A stretch of 63,841 nt of DNA from IMG/VR virus record IMGVR_UViG_3300021168_000030, positions 1 to 63,841 of that record; one strand, 5' to 3'. Source of the stretch: a virus (lineage: Duplodnaviria > Caudoviricetes). A model generated the notes under the pieces. That model did not search any database. It saw only the letters and a list, made by a program, of their open reading frames with translations, and was not told where the DNA came from. The stretch's first letter is position 1, and every line of letters begins with the position of its first letter. A program made the translations under genes and the position numbers. Positions 44,109 through 51,677 of this stretch are shown one piece after another.

Positions 44109-44729
44109 ATGTTCTGTAAGTGTCATGTTTGCCGGTCAAGCCGACGGCAAGCTTTATGGCTAACGCCCGTCATCTTCTTCGGGATAATGGGTATAACCTA
44201 CGCGGCTTACCAGCCGGGCTTTCTCATCCCTTCGAATAATTTGTCGGACGTGACTGTGGTTGCGACCGCGAGGACAAACCTTGGTCTTGGTACGGCCGCG
44301 GTGAAGGCGGCATCGAACGCCGCGGACGCTACCGTGGCCTCGGTTACTGGTTCCTACACCGTCGGCCACGTGGCGACCTATGCCGATACGACTGGTTCTC
44401 TGCAGGACGGCGGCGCAGCTTCCGTGGCTCCTACAGTGGCACTGGCAGCGACTTCGGCGGGGATTACTCTGGCGTCGACACCTAACCTGACCACCATTGT
44501 GAGCAATACCACGGTAACTTCGGCAACGCTACCGAGCGCCATCACTGTGGGCGCCGGGTTCCGCGAATGCATCAAGGACGGAACGGAAGATTTTAACGCG
44601 CACAATGTCACGCTCAAAAGCACGGCTGGAACGATCGACGGTGTGGCTGCGGCGACTGGAATCGTAATGAACCAGACACACCAAGAGATGTGCGCTATCA
44701 GCGACGGCACCAATTGGTTTGTTGAGTGA
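44109..44729 (+). CDS. Fibre-domain protein with signal-peptide-like N-terminus
   Basis: RR..LWLTPVIFFGIMGITYA-A; NNLSDV...ARTNLGLGTAA fibre motif; C-terminal TLP..IKD..TIDG..SDGTNW. Confidence 0.7.
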   Translation: MFCKCHVCRSSRRQALWLTPVIFFGIMGITYAAYQPGFLIPSNNLSDVTVVATARTNLGLGTAAVKAASNAADATVASVTGSYTVGHVATYADTTGSLQDGGAASVAPTVALAATSAGITLASTPNLTTIVSNTTVTSATLPSAITVGAGFRECIKDGTEDFNAHNVTLKSTAGTIDGVAAATGIVMNQTHQEMCAISDGTNWFVE

Positions 44730-44738
44730 TGGCTCGGT

Positions 44739-45707
44739 ATGCGGAGCTTTTTACTCGCTGCCAGTTTAGCAACAATTATTTTGACTGGAGGCGCCAAGGC
44801 AGCTTATAACGTCCCTAATGTGATCCAGGGCGGGCTCACTGTTAGCGGACAGCTTTTAACGAATGCTGGTTTGGGGCTGGGCGGCTCTGCGACAGGCAAC
44901 GCCTTCTCGTCAATGACATCGAATACAAATACACTATTTCCTTCGACAGCGACAACGACCTATACATTTAGCGACCATTTTGCAGGTCTGCGCGAAATGG
45001 ATCTGTGGAACGATGACTCGGTGGCTACTACGTCGTTCAACTTTTATCAGATGACGGGCACGGGTGCGGCGACATTAGAGGCGTCGCTGGCGCTCGCTGG
45101 CCTGACGTTGGGGAAGAGCATCCCGCTGATCTTGTCGGGCGCGACTTCAGGCACAACCACTGTGCAGGCGCCCGCCGTTGCGTCAGGCACACTGACTCTG
45201 CCGGCGGCCACCGATACCTTGGTTGGCAAGGCGACGACGGATACGCTGACGAACAAGACGCTGACAGACGAGATCAATCAGGAGTTCGAGGTTAGCACCG
45301 CAGCCATCACTTTTACCAGCAATACTACGCTAGCGACAGTTACGGGCCTGTCGCAGGCTTTGACGGCGGGCAAGACCTACAACTGCCATGGCCATCTGAC
45401 GGTCACTGCGGGAAATGCAACTGCGGGAATTAAGGTCGCTATGGTTGGGACGGGTAGTTTGACAGCTACTAGTAGCAGCTTTGTGTTTATCAATCACAAT
45501 GCCGCGGTCATAAATTCAGTGACAACGGAAACTGTTCTTGGAACGGCCGCCGGCACTACTGCAGCGGTAACCGACATTTTCATGGATGGCGCCATTGTCG
45601 TAAATGTTGCCGGGACGATCAATTTTCAGGCGGCGCAGAATGTCTCTAACGCAACCGGCACGACGATCGGTCAAAATTCGACAATGAATTGTGTTCGCGT
45701 AAATTAG
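44739..45707 (+). CDS. Fibre-like protein with signal peptide
   Basis: MRSFLLAASLATIILTGGAKA-A; TLTLPAATDTLVGKATTDTLTNKTLT fibre motif. Confidence 0.75.
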   Translation: MRSFLLAASLATIILTGGAKAAYNVPNVIQGGLTVSGQLLTNAGLGLGGSATGNAFSSMTSNTNTLFPSTATTTYTFSDHFAGLREMDLWNDDSVATTSFNFYQMTGTGAATLEASLALAGLTLGKSIPLILSGATSGTTTVQAPAVASGTLTLPAATDTLVGKATTDTLTNKTLTDEINQEFEVSTAAITFTSNTTLATVTGLSQALTAGKTYNCHGHLTVTAGNATAGIKVAMVGTGSLTATSSSFVFINHNAAVINSVTTETVLGTAAGTTAAVTDIFMDGAIVVNVAGTINFQAAQNVSNATGTTIGQNSTMNCVRVN

Positions 45708-48982: not shown

Positions 48983-49708
48983 ATGCGCCGGTATCTTACT
49001 CTCGCAGCAATAGCCGCTGCGGCGTTTATCTGGCTGCAACCATCAGTACTGGCGCAGCCTGTTGCCGGTGGTCTCTCATCGCTGCCGGCGGCGCCTGCGA
49101 TCCACGACACAGATACGATGGCGCTATGCCAGAACGGTGCGCCGGGCTGCTCGGTGACGAGTTATGTTTGGAGCAGTGCCAATCTCGGGCAAATCGCTGC
49201 AAATTTCGCGCAGCGCACCCAAACCGTAACCAATCATACCCTTAGCTGTTCGGCTAATGTCTGCACCAACATCCCATCGAGCGCCTTGGTGGCGACTGGG
49301 GTTAGCGCTGGCGCATACACAAACGCCAATATTACGGTCAATAGCGCTGGGCAGATAACTGCGGCGTCTAACGGTTTCGCTACAGTATCGAAAACTGCTA
49401 ACTATTCGCTAACTTCTGCTGACAGTGGGACTTGCTTTGACAATGGCGGGGCGACGGGTACGGTAGTTTTTACTCTGCCTGCGTATGCTGCGGGCCTTAA
49501 CTACTGCTTCATTGTTATGGCTGCTCAGATCCTGGAGGTCCTCGCTCCTACGGGTGTTAAAATCTCGATGGCTCCGAACATTACGGCGACCGCGGGTAAT
49601 GTCCAAGATATTACCCTCTACGACACTCTTTCCCTCATTGCCCCCGCGAGCGGAACGACTGTGTGGGTCGCGCGCTCCTTTGAAGGCACAGGCTGGAGCC
49701 TAAACTAA
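48983..49708 (+). CDS. Fibre-domain protein with signal peptide
   Basis: MRRYLTLAAIAAAAFIWLQPSVLA-Q; GVSAGAYTNANITVNSAGQITAASNG fibre motif; KTANY.LT.ADSG..TLP..GL.Y.F domain. Confidence 0.75.
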   Translation: MRRYLTLAAIAAAAFIWLQPSVLAQPVAGGLSSLPAAPAIHDTDTMALCQNGAPGCSVTSYVWSSANLGQIAANFAQRTQTVTNHTLSCSANVCTNIPSSALVATGVSAGAYTNANITVNSAGQITAASNGFATVSKTANYSLTSADSGTCFDNGGATGTVVFTLPAYAAGLNYCFIVMAAQILEVLAPTGVKISMAPNITATAGNVQDITLYDTLSLIAPASGTTVWVARSFEGTGWSLN

Positions 49709-50709
49709 TGCGTAAACCTCTCGCAATCCTGCTGCTTCTGGCAGCGCTGCTTCCCGCTGCGGACCGCTCACAGGCAGCCTCATTGGTCGCTGGCTCGTGG
49801 CCGACTAATGCCTTCGCCCTGACAGATGGTGGGACGATCACGGTGCCCTGCCCTGGCACGGCGGGGGTCTCGGGCTTTTACACGCTTACTATCTTAGGCA
49901 ACAACCATGTAATCTCGCTGCCTCAGTGTACCGTACCGGCCGATTTCAAGTTCGCGATTACCCAAGGCGCGGGCGGTCCGTACACTGGGCTTTCGTTTAG
50001 TTCGGCTGGCATAATCACATGGCCGGGCGGGACCGCCTATACTCCAACTAGCGCAGGGGGCGCACTTGATTACGTCAGCGGCACGATCTCAAACCTAACG
50101 GGATCGAATGAGTGGGACATTACGGGGGTTGCCCCTAATCTTCTAACGGTCAGTGACCCGTGGCAGTTGGCTGGGAGTGCTGGCTGTAATTCGGGTGTGG
50201 TGCTGTCCAACGGTAATTTAACCGCCTCCGTGCCGAGCGGTGGTTTCTTCGGTTGCTTGGCTACACATTCACACACAACTGGGCAATACTACTTTTTTGA
50301 AACAGCAACCTCGACATCTTCAGGTAGTAACTGGATACCTGGCTTTGCAAATGCCTCAACGGTGTTGAATAACTACTTTGGTAGTGACCTTAATAGTATC
50401 GGTGTTAAATCTGGCACGATATTCTACAACAACTCCATCACTGCAACCGGTCCGGCTATTACAACTGGGACTGTTGTTCGGTTTGATGTCGATTTAACAA
50501 ACAAACAATTGGGTATCAATGTAGCGGGCACCGAGTATCCAAGTGGTTGTGTCATAACAACGCCGACTGGTTGCTTCTCCTTTAGCACCTGGAACGGGGG
50601 CGCAGCATTCCCGGCGTTTTCAGGGACCGGCGGCACAACTGCTGATACAAGCACCATAAATGCAACTAGCGGCACGGGTCCCGGTGGAAGTTTTGTGCCA
50701 TGGCAATGA
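49708..50709 (+). CDS. SPRY-like domain protein with signal peptide
   Basis: MRKPLAILLLLAALLPAADRSQA-A; LSNGNLT..AT....G.YYF..G.VV...VDL..FPA.S. Confidence 0.7.
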   Translation: MRKPLAILLLLAALLPAADRSQAASLVAGSWPTNAFALTDGGTITVPCPGTAGVSGFYTLTILGNNHVISLPQCTVPADFKFAITQGAGGPYTGLSFSSAGIITWPGGTAYTPTSAGGALDYVSGTISNLTGSNEWDITGVAPNLLTVSDPWQLAGSAGCNSGVVLSNGNLTASVPSGGFFGCLATHSHTTGQYYFFETATSTSSGSNWIPGFANASTVLNNYFGSDLNSIGVKSGTIFYNNSITATGPAITTGTVVRFDVDLTNKQLGINVAGTEYPSGCVITTPTGCFSFSTWNGGAAFPAFSGTGGTTADTSTINATSGTGPGGSFVPWQ

Positions 50710-51677
50710 AACCACCGCGAGTTTCTGTTCTCTTGATCGTGCTGCTACTGCTATCATCATCGGCCTTTGCCATGTGGGGCAGAGGACCGACGGGTAAGAT
50801 TATCGCTCCTCCTCCGCCTCCTCCTCCGCCCAGCGGAGGAGTACCAGCCCCGGCGACCGCTGCCGGGTTCACGACCGCGGCACTCAACGCCGACTTCTCG
50901 CAGCCATCATACGCAAATCTCGCGAATTGGCTCTATGGGTGCGGCGGTTCGCTGCCAGGATGGTCTTGGCCTGGCCCGTGCGCTCGCGTTGACCAGGAAT
51001 TTGACGCGAGCGCAGGCAAGAATGTTCTGCATTTGCAGCACTCAACGAGCGACGGCGGCAACGGCCATTCGTGGGCGTTTTCTTACCCTGCTGTGTACTT
51101 CGGGCCCGGAAGCACCAATAATAATTTCCCGGCCGAAGGTTATTTCCAGATGACCTTTCGGATGTCAGCCGCTTCTCTGGTGCAGCCTAATGGTACATCC
51201 CCCGTTTTAGGCGGGCAGCTCGCCGTTGGCACAGGGAATGCAAACTGGATCGAGCCAGATACTTTAGAGGTTTCTGCCAACTCAACACAATACGGTAACG
51301 GATCGTTAGAGTTTTGTAACGGTAGTATATGTAACGGCATCTTTAGTTGGCCAGGAGGATTTCCAACTGGTGATATGACAGTATACCATACTATAGGTAT
51401 ACTGTGGACGAGCGATGGAACTTCCGATTACTGGAAATGCGCGTTTCTTGATGGGAATTTTACGGGCTGCGCCGGCTGGAACGTAACCAATCCGAGCACT
51501 CTTTCCAACCATCAGTTCGTTATTGCAAACGGGCCGGGAAATGCCGGAACCAACAATGTGGACTGGTATCTGCAGTCAATGCAAATGTGGGTATGTCCTG
51601 GGTCATACGGCACGACAGTCCAATGCCCAGGAAACGCCACTAACGGCAGTGCAATAACTCATTGGCCGTGGCCGTGA
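50706..51677 (+). CDS. GH16/ConA-like domain protein with signal peptide
   Basis: LLIVLLLLSSSAFA-MWGRG, poly-Pro linker; WIEPDTLE (ExDxxE), YHTIGILWT. Confidence 0.65.
   Translation: MKPPRVSVLLIVLLLLSSSAFAMWGRGPTGKIIAPPPPPPPPSGGVPAPATAAGFTTAALNADFSQPSYANLANWLYGCGGSLPGWSWPGPCARVDQEFDASAGKNVLHLQHSTSDGGNGHSWAFSYPAVYFGPGSTNNNFPAEGYFQMTFRMSAASLVQPNGTSPVLGGQLAVGTGNANWIEPDTLEVSANSTQYGNGSLEFCNGSICNGIFSWPGGFPTGDMTVYHTIGILWTSDGTSDYWKCAFLDGNFTGCAGWNVTNPSTLSNHQFVIANGPGNAGTNNVDWYLQSMQMWVCPGSYGTTVQCPGNATNGSAITHWPWP

Follow-up and report, generated by a model that had tools for sequence, protein, structure and literature searches.

Eight late genes of an uncultured, short-tailed soil phage open with N-termini of the Sec signal-peptide type, and export of their products from the cytoplasm is very likely as judged from sequence. 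The DNA analysed here (the window, 63,841 b) is the whole of a 64-kb IMG/VR virus record (IMGVR_UViG_3300021168_000030), which CheckV rates as complete. The assembly of tailed-phage particles is generally placed entirely in the cytoplasm, and our literature searches turned up no account of tailed phages whose tail fibres or head spikes carry secretion signals. We read the eight proteins as Sec substrates of a lytic podophage of the GP4/Bcep22 type, comprising virion appendages that would mature in the periplasm as well as secreted glycan enzymes derived from a host, and we give this reading slightly less than an even chance.

Signal peptides were called with a heuristic of our own, which asks for an n-region of non-negative charge, an uncharged h-region with a mean Kyte-Doolittle value of at least 1.7, and small residues at positions -3 and -1; the pass mark was a score of 35. 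A preliminary description of this DNA had proposed that eight open reading frames (ORFs) begin in this way, and all are present, with starts at the positions by which they are called below (44109, 44739, 46469, 48667, 48983, 49708, 50706 and 59776), and score at least 35. Ten of the 74 ORFs of the window reach the mark, namely the eight, 17306-17581 and the dubious 29150-29524, while among the controls 0.8% of internal pseudo-N-termini (9 of 1152) and 1.6% of shuffled N-termini (60 of 3700) do so. The eight genes, whose signal-like N-termini are called leaders here, are as follows.

44109..44729, + strand: fibre-like protein of 206 amino acids (aa), score 35.6, matching the 'tail fiber' families phrog_2282 and phrog_22284 (E 1e-6 and 1.1e-5)
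44739..45707, + strand: leader-bearing protein of viral-fibre type, 322 aa, score 39.2, 2 mature Cys
46469..47800, + strand: S74 fibre of 443 aa, with leader, three Cys-pair repeats, shaft and C-terminal S74 intramolecular chaperone
48667..48978, + strand: head-spike base (jelly roll, RcGTA Rcc01079 type) of 103 aa, made up of a 24-aa leader and the mature base
48983..49708, + strand: leader-bearing fibre-like protein, 241 aa, score 44.3, phrog_29288 at 5e-4, 6 mature Cys
49708..50709, + strand: leader-bearing protein of 333 aa, score 43.5, 6 mature Cys, with a conserved N-domain at about 24-135 and a variable C-domain
50700..51677, + strand (50706): concanavalin-like jelly-roll protein, 323/325 aa, leader with score 53.0, ExDxxE motif, 8 mature Cys
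59776..61827, + strand: enzyme-like protein of 683 aa, with leader, Pro-rich linker, two cadherin-like beta-sandwiches and a right-handed beta-helix, 14 mature Cys

Most of these leaders have h-regions of 14-17 residues followed by small residues at -3 and -1. By eye, a ribosome-binding site of the GGAG/GAGG/AGGA type lies within 20 nt upstream of six of the eight starts; at 44739 and 50706 it is weak or missing, and 50706 has an alternative ATG at 50700. The least canonical leader is that of 44109, as had been remarked earlier, with a Cys-rich basic n-region of 14 residues and then about 20 uncharged residues, which is borderline for a Sec/SPase I signal with its h-region of 7-17 residues; it could be a signal peptide or a signal-anchor, and Met27 could be the true start. 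Met23 of 50706 coincides exactly with the predicted mature N-terminus, and Met16 of 59776 lies inside the h-region; leaderless cytoplasmic isoforms of these two proteins are conceivable. Four late proteins that the preliminary description had set apart as virion anchors without signal peptides (42530, 43079, 45763 and 53850) likewise have no signal-like N-terminus by our heuristic, and their Cys counts, described earlier as low in several, are 2, 0, 0 and 5.

Fifteen related viral loci were collected through their nozzle genes, and 13 of them include sequence upstream of the nozzle. A survey of relatives for a split between leader-bearing and leaderless sets, which had been suggested as a check, brought out leader-bearing sets at four of these 13 loci (L008, L009, L010 and L015), each with 2-4 such ORFs between adaptor and nozzle. 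A cultured Rhizobium phage has a leaderless 370-aa fibre at that position, and the 3 of its 24 scored annotated proteins that reach 35 (77, 128 and 171 aa) include no large fibre-like one. Among homologues of individual members, P0002 (705 aa, S74, 44% identity) and P0005 carry a leader as 46469 does, while P0003 and P0004 are leaderless; 49708 shares only its N-domain with P0163 and with the leader-bearing P0164 (57% identity over 39%); and leaders were seen by eye in 4 of 4 full-length homologues of 50706. For 59776, with 404 homologues at E <=1e-3, 9 of 10 read by eye have a signal-like N-terminus, the tenth starting inside the protein, and the heuristic finds leaders in 65 of 150 among the matches listed, many of the others being fragments. 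We take the leaders to be conserved features of their families rather than accidents of this genome.

Sec substrates cross the membrane unfolded, signal peptidase I cuts after small residues at -3 and -1, and DsbA forms disulfides in the periplasm. That most of the leader ORFs carry several Cys, as the preliminary description had it, agrees with the mature counts, which are 2, 2, 8, 0, 6, 6, 8 and 14 in gene order. The count is even in all eight, and in 22 of 24 once the leader-bearing proteins of related loci are added; Cys makes up 1.68% of residues in the leader proteins of the window and related loci versus 0.32% in 21 leaderless late proteins; the nozzle (8 Cys) and the needle (5) are exceptions that lack a leader. 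Export is thus supported because the leaders are canonical and recur in distant homologues, because mature Cys counts are even, and because one homologue of 59776 stands in a bacterial polysaccharide locus (see below).

In many of the leader-bearing relatives the predicted +1 residue is Gln. Cleaved products with Gln at the N-terminus have been noted in Porphyromonas phages too, where, in the portion of the source drawn on here, Sec signals are described on capsid proteins (ascribed to the prohead protease), spanins and genes of unknown function, and none is reported on fibres or spikes (Matrishin et al. 2023, PMC10367356). As a side observation, four otherwise unrelated leader proteins of L008, L009 and L010 share the near-identical mature N-terminus Gln-Gln-Val-Pro-Asn/His-Pro, and in one of them a pectate-lyase-type beta-helix starts just about 15 residues further on; such a start could be a docking or sorting peptide, or else a recombination handle.

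Among the eight, 48667 has the clearest virion affinity. Its mature body matches two PDB entries with modest scores, the 'Spike Base Protein' 8cjz_h (E 2e-4) and Rcc01079 in 6tb9 (E 0.008), and it matches phrog_12296 at 4e-6. A scan of IMG/VR gave spike-base homologues at 70 loci. Of these, 68 are leaderless, and the other two, which have leaders, come from the contigs that also hold L008 and L009. The related locus L005, with a nozzle 59% identical, holds a leaderless base copy of 75 aa whose first residue aligns just past the leader of 48667. Because its mature part is colinear with this leaderless copy, 48667 is a leader joined to a complete virion-type protein. In a tree of spike bases, those of L008, L009 and L015 group together (100/100), while the window copy falls in a polytomy, its nearest row being the leaderless L026 (53% identity); one gain of the leader and two gains both fit. 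A prediction of the complex between two capsid proteins and two mature 48667 chains scored 0.00 against a mark of 0.32, which speaks neither for nor against binding.

The gene that follows, 48983, is a candidate head fibre and, by its position, probably the partner of 48667; compared by eye at the level of translations, it shares a fibre motif with the leaderless fibre-like P0003. In RcGTA, as far as the account consulted goes, a pentamer of Rcc01079 is fastened through its N-termini onto the capsid pentons (Bardy et al. 2020, PMC7296036; PDB 6TB9), and holds a single head fibre, Rcc01080, through fibre residues 2-10, which contain alternating (iso)leucines (PMC7296036). The window resembles this head spike in that 48667 aligns to 8cjz_h and Rcc01079 over the jelly roll and is followed by a fibre-like gene, as bases at the IMG/VR loci are by fibre-like ORFs. 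At L008, L009 and L015 the base bears a leader, as does the fibre encoded directly after it, and the fibres keep an RcGTA-like base-binding peptide, with four alternating hydrophobic residues no more than 14 aa past the predicted cleavage site. This four-residue motif is present in 3 of 3 of these fibres; none of 12 other leader proteins has it, and in the background it turns up in 29 of 543 N-termini. A looser form of it is present in 20 of 64 ORFs downstream of leaderless bases versus 56 of 543 in the background. Since the motif directly follows the leader at these three loci, cleavage would put back at the N-terminus the docking peptide with which leaderless fibres begin anyway. The differences from RcGTA are that both partners carry a secretion signal at L008, L009, L015 and in the window, against 68 of 70 viral base homologues that are leaderless, that the capsid protein is of a different family, and that the window's 48983 lacks the peptide motif.

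Two side observations touch this pair. Twin-arginine-like n-regions occur in L015 5225-6844 and L087 4204-5853 (on the L009 contig), both with Ser/Gly-Arg-Arg-Ala-Leu-Leu, and 48983 itself begins Met-Arg-Arg-Tyr-Leu; export of folded protein by Tat is a possibility for this head-fibre-type subfamily. The leaderless, Cys-free protein encoded at 43079-44107 (342 aa) starts with three short tandem repeats rich in Leu/Ile-Ser-Ile-Gly-Gly, continues with about 10 imperfect Ala/Thr-rich repeats of about 20 aa each, and has no homologue among the 15 related loci. Its hydrophobic, repetitive N-terminus recalls the docking peptide of the RcGTA head fibre, and by this analogy 43079 could be an alternative partner of the spike base.

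Another member with virion affinity is 46469, which occupies the lateral-fibre slot. The S74 chaperone ascribed to it earlier is borne out by PF13884 (32.9 bits against a cut-off of 22, E 8e-8, residues 339-403 of 443) and by an SDxxxK motif, as defined in PMC10769870, at residue 338, and 16 of the 19 PHROG families that it matches are tail families. Its three repeats have Cys at 28/47, 66/85 and 103/122, each pair spaced by 19 residues, and the leader belongs to the protein because the first repeat precedes the next Met, residue 55. A parallel is found in the MAT fibres of Bdellovibrio bacteriovorus, fibre-like trimers with a signal peptide that fold after export, 13 of 21 of which end in an S74 chaperone/protease with SDxxxK, according to the part of the report used here (Caulton et al. 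2024, PMC10769870). We class 46469, with its leader, shaft, S74 domain and SDxxxK, as working like these proteins and not as one of them: the MAT fibres are bacterial cell-surface adhesins with a common beta-rich N-domain of about 130 aa after the signal peptide, whereas 46469 stands in a phage late operon, in the lateral-fibre slot, with three Cys-pair repeats in the position of that N-domain.

The leaderless neighbours of 46469 are the following.

45763..46464, + strand: fibre-tail adaptor or short fibre, leaderless and Cys-free, with conserved N-domain, Pro-rich linker and C-terminal knob
47860-48081, 48092-48442 and 48446-48670, + strand: three small leaderless, Cys-free proteins, the first two conserved in relatives by BLAST

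The match of 45763 to the Pfam family Gp77 (PF23148, the GP4 fibre-tail adaptor) reaches 23.2 bits, below the cut-off of 27, and 8jou_D is matched at E 0.5; homologues are found in 9 related loci, and genome position and conservation fit an adaptor role. At L004, L007 and L016 the adaptor is followed by a leaderless fibre with a common N-domain of about 90 aa and a C-terminus like the S74 end of 46469, and at L006 adaptor and fibre are fused. That N-domain is absent from the window, L008, L009, L010 and L015, which have leader-bearing proteins instead. In an alignment of 45763 with seven relatives, the adaptors of the leaderless-fibre phages L004, L007 and L016 have an extra tail of 8-9 residues past a conserved Trp, and those of the leader-type phages, 45763 included, stop right after this Trp; the tail may be where the leaderless fibre binds. 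Because both the fibre N-domain and the adaptor tail are absent, the leader-type phages have lost the known fibre-adaptor pairing. We do not count the mutual exclusivity of leaderless fibre and leader proteins as proof of replacement, given that 45763 has a knob and 53850 may be receptor-binding. The idea that a protein like 48092 is exclusive to leader-type modules was dropped, L012-L014 and L017 having it too. Three fibre types have been reported for GP4-type phages in the portion of the source drawn on (Zheng et al. 2023; PDB 8JOU). Our phage has the same virion core as these podophages (portal, two adaptors, nozzle, needle and ejection proteins) and likewise a Gp77-like adaptor gene followed by fibre genes, but the GP4-type and Rhizobium-phage fibres examined are leaderless and the Gp77 match of 45763 is below the cut-off.

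The phage fibre motifs that the preliminary description saw in the set are backed by PHROG tail-fibre matches for 44109, 46469 and 48667 and not for 44739, 49708, 50706 or 59776. For 44739 there is no Pfam or PHROG match, the Atlas leads being viral clusters with a score of 0.90 and a likeness of the C-terminal 124 aa to small viral knob proteins (TM 0.93 by target). The last 75 aa of 44109 are weakly like the C-domain of 45763 in an HMM comparison (domain i-E 0.004), with 48092 at E 0.36; knob kinship among the three was dropped because these values are too weak. An SPRY domain proposed on 49708 finds no Pfam match, and its weak Atlas lead (0.82) is at a level that shuffled proteins reach one-third of the time.

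A different affinity marks 50706 and 59776, which look like host-type secreted glycan enzymes and are predicted as such. In 50706 the ExDxxE residues E183, D185 and E188 are invariant in 6 of 6 sequences; a fold model from the six-row alignment has a pLDDT of 52, and its Foldseek matches are jelly rolls of lectins, glucanases and lyases and GH131, with TM-scores up to 0.5, GH16 not being singled out. No Pfam family matches at E <=0.01, and thus no GH16 profile, so that of the earlier GH16-like label the motif and the low-confidence model retain a jelly roll; we place the protein in that class on the model and do not file it as GH16. The beta-helix seen earlier on 59776 is confirmed by an AlphaFold2 model (pLDDT 81.8, pTM 0.85, the leader forming a helix) and by Foldseek matches to pectin methylesterases, isopullulanase, the Klebsiella K1 capsule lyase and cadherin repeats; no family-level assignment is made because the top TM-scores are low (<=0.25 by query). 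Pfam Beta_helix is found in 3 of 12 homologues, the window protein itself being unmatched. After the leader, 50706 and 59776 directly share WGRG and poly-Pro.

In the window, 59776 lies between ejection-protein genes. It has no match in 50,697 cultured phage records, and a homologue with 52% identity (L019) stands in a chromosomal polysaccharide locus of an alphaproteobacterial metagenome-assembled genome (MAG), next to two GNAT acyltransferase genes, a methyltransferase, a GT4 glycosyltransferase, a Hint protein and ccm genes, with no phage genes nearby. Rhizobial ExoK is an example of a periplasmic or secreted exopolysaccharide glycanase. The likeness to bacterial polysaccharide-locus enzymes lies in the architecture and leader that 59776 shares with its chromosomal homologue and in the ExDxxE of 50706 within a jelly roll; the differences are that both are encoded in a phage structural and ejection module and carry WGRG and poly-Pro after the leader. 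In an unrelated 45-kb phage (G001, with terminal repeats; locus L020), an 84% copy of 59776 lies beside a homologue of 50706 and a third leader-bearing gene, in a cassette (5402-9014) that closes the late operon, with an SLT-type ejection protein preceding it and a divergent primase beyond. On a third backbone, L022, five leader-bearing ORFs stand in a row beside the portal gene. As a side observation, all three leaders of the L020 cassette end in Ala-Tyr-Ala, and leader ends are closer within a genome than to orthologues elsewhere.

The late genes of the window are on the + strand and begin with portal (35758), scaffold and major capsid protein (40092), followed by two adaptor-type proteins (41515, 41883) and the fibre-tail adaptor-like 45763. 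The nozzle (52070; phrog_511, E 1e-100) and a needle or spike (53850) come next, and further downstream lie an acetyltransferase, ejection proteins including an SLT protein (57614), and a giant protein that leaves the record's end. The closest cultured phages are the Rhizobium phages RHph_TM3_14A, TM27A/B and TM29 (54% aa identity in the capsid protein, 32% in the nozzle), with Ralstonia GP4, Burkholderia Bcep22 and relatives of Stx phages more distant at about 30%. These relatives, together with the MAG homologue of 59776, make the host probably an alphaproteobacterium (diderm). Genes encoded include a family-A DNA polymerase, an SNF2 helicase and a DUF927 primase-helicase. Neither a tyrosine integrase (PF00589) nor a serine recombinase or resolvase (PF00239) has a match in the genome; on this account the phage is probably lytic and a role of the leader genes in lysogenic conversion is unlikely, which weakens a reading of the phage as temperate or of the genes as morons. 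The lysis genes form one further feature.

4408..6415, + strand: lysis cassette, with small ORFs (4408-5233), an endolysin (5412-6080) and a lipobox protein (6077-6415)

The endolysin has a PF01832 glucosaminidase domain (E 1.8e-37), and the 112-aa product of 6077-6415, on the + strand after it, is a probable spanin component with an N-terminus of lipobox type. With holin and spanin roles assumed for its members, the cassette would be the machinery that merges cytoplasm with periplasm. Two side observations concern other parts of the record. On the - strand, 17306-17581 encodes a 91-aa early-region protein with a strong signal-like N-terminus (score 42). The last ORF, 61845-63839, overruns the record's 3' end, a 1443-aa ORF (22-4353) begins at base 22, and together the two resemble one 2307-aa protein of Rhizobium phage TM27A; the record break thus probably falls within one giant ejection-protein gene, though the reading frames do not join directly.

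The leaders with their conservation, the Cys pattern and the homologies are observed, and lead us to the following scheme, in which cleavage, export, disulfides and above all late docking are conditional. The eight proteins would be made from the late operon and, in the periplasm, lose their signal peptides and form disulfides. One class would consist of virion appendages matured there, namely the spike base 48667 with its partner fibre (probably 48983) and the S74 fibre 46469, and perhaps also 44109, 44739 and 49708; an S74 chaperone needs no ATP. The other class, 50706 and 59776, would be host-derived and act free on envelope or extracellular polysaccharide, or also be attached to particles. 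The appendages would meet DNA-filled particles only once the holin opens the inner membrane. Very large holes are opened in the inner membrane by holins, and endolysin and spanins complete lysis afterwards; because of this order we infer that, for a short time, particles and periplasmic proteins mix within a closed outer membrane, docking taking place, if it does, before or at outer-membrane rupture. That virion parts mature in the periplasm and join particles after the holin has opened the membrane seems to us plausible, if short of an even chance. The wider proposition is held more tentatively still: in one lineage of lytic podophages, head spikes and lateral fibres would now fold in the periplasm, after Sec export, with the docking peptide left as the new N-terminus by trimming and with disulfides formed, and would be added to finished particles only in the seconds from holin holes to outer-membrane rupture. 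Such a two-compartment assembly would be undescribed for tailed phages. Of what the preliminary description had inferred, export and oxidative folding are well supported, and the idea of exported appendages is supported for part of the set (48667, the fibres of L008, L009 and L015, and 46469).

Several findings weigh against periplasm-matured appendages. The set is not uniform, and no recognisable virion anchor is found on 50706 or 59776, which resemble ordinary bacterial secreted enzymes and look to move between unrelated phage backbones. In 48983, the 14 aa that follow the predicted cut contain no alternating-hydrophobic docking peptide, and the fibres of L008, L009 and L015 that do have it are mutually homologous and so represent one lineage. 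The leader-bearing fibres lack the anchor N-domain of leaderless fibres, and the leader-type adaptors lack the C-terminal tail seen alongside those fibres. With the knob of 45763 and the 484-aa needle or spike 53850, the particle may adsorb without any exported protein. The nearest cultured relatives, the Rhizobium phages, have a leaderless fibre and no such leader-bearing genes, and internal Met codons in 44109 (residue 27), 50706 (23) and 59776 (16) make leaderless forms possible.

The main rival reading of the same observations is that all eight proteins are exported and none is a virion part, so that they would form a periplasmic toolkit for binding and cutting glycans that is released at lysis. 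It would cut or mask the host's capsule, exopolysaccharide or O-antigen, keeping progeny from sticking to debris and slime or excluding other phages, and virion genes would have supplied the domains of its fibre- and spike-like members. Such a role is possible, though we rather doubt it for the set as a whole. It fits 59776 and 50706 well: 59776 has its homologue in a polysaccharide locus, its 404 homologues without one in the cultured phage records, and a CAZyme-type beta-helix with cadherin-like domains, and 50706 has its invariant ExDxxE. It also accords with the three-gene leader cassette of the unrelated 45-kb phage and the five such genes of L022, with the want of a visible virion anchor domain on any of the eight, and with leaderless proteins (45763 and 53850) that could provide adsorption. 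The spike base fits it badly, however, since a capsid-vertex spike base has no known role off the capsid and mature 48667, including its short N-terminal arm, is colinear with leaderless virion homologues; moreover, in relatives the fibre as trimmed at the predicted cut still has the base-binding peptide at its N-terminus. Periplasmic trimeric fibres would also need a dedicated route to the cell surface, and an apparently lytic phage with these genes expressed late is a poor match to exclusion functions.

Two further explanations concern the N-termini themselves. They might insert in the inner membrane uncut, as signal-anchors or as tethers released on depolarisation, the proteins being freed when the holin fires. 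SAR endolysins are known tethers of the latter kind, the release would be coupled in time to lysis, and two members lend themselves to it, 44109 with its long basic n-region and about 20 uncharged residues and 48983 with an Ala-rich, weakly hydrophobic stretch of 20 residues. Yet most of the eight have the 14-17-residue h-regions and small -3/-1 residues typical of cleaved signals, and in relatives the docking peptide, which is N-terminal in leaderless homologues, lies just past the predicted cut; we consider uncut tethers improbable. Alternatively, the hydrophobic N-termini could be docking or oligomerisation peptides rather than export signals, or the true starts could lie downstream. The RcGTA head fibre, in the account cited above, does bind its base through a hydrophobic N-terminal peptide, and 44109, 50706 and 59776 do contain an internal Met. 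On the other side, the full n/h/c layout is found in eight proteins of unrelated folds and in bacterial chromosomal homologues, Cys are even in number and enriched, the first conserved repeat of 46469 lies upstream of its next Met, and the true docking peptide of relatives comes after the leader, as a separate element. We regard this explanation as the least probable of all and hardly tenable.

For annotation, signal peptides on 'tail fibre' genes are not to be dismissed as start-codon errors. Even if the data are read conservatively, late export of a battery of glycan enzymes by a lytic phage would be an under-described answer to host exopolysaccharide. The occurrence of the spike base in leader-bearing and leaderless forms among close relatives is a natural experiment. 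If appendages do mature in the periplasm, disulfide-stabilised receptor-binding proteins would be a resource for engineering, the Dsb and Sec functions of the host would be dependency factors of the phage, and the assembly of these tailed phages would gain a final step tied to lysis.

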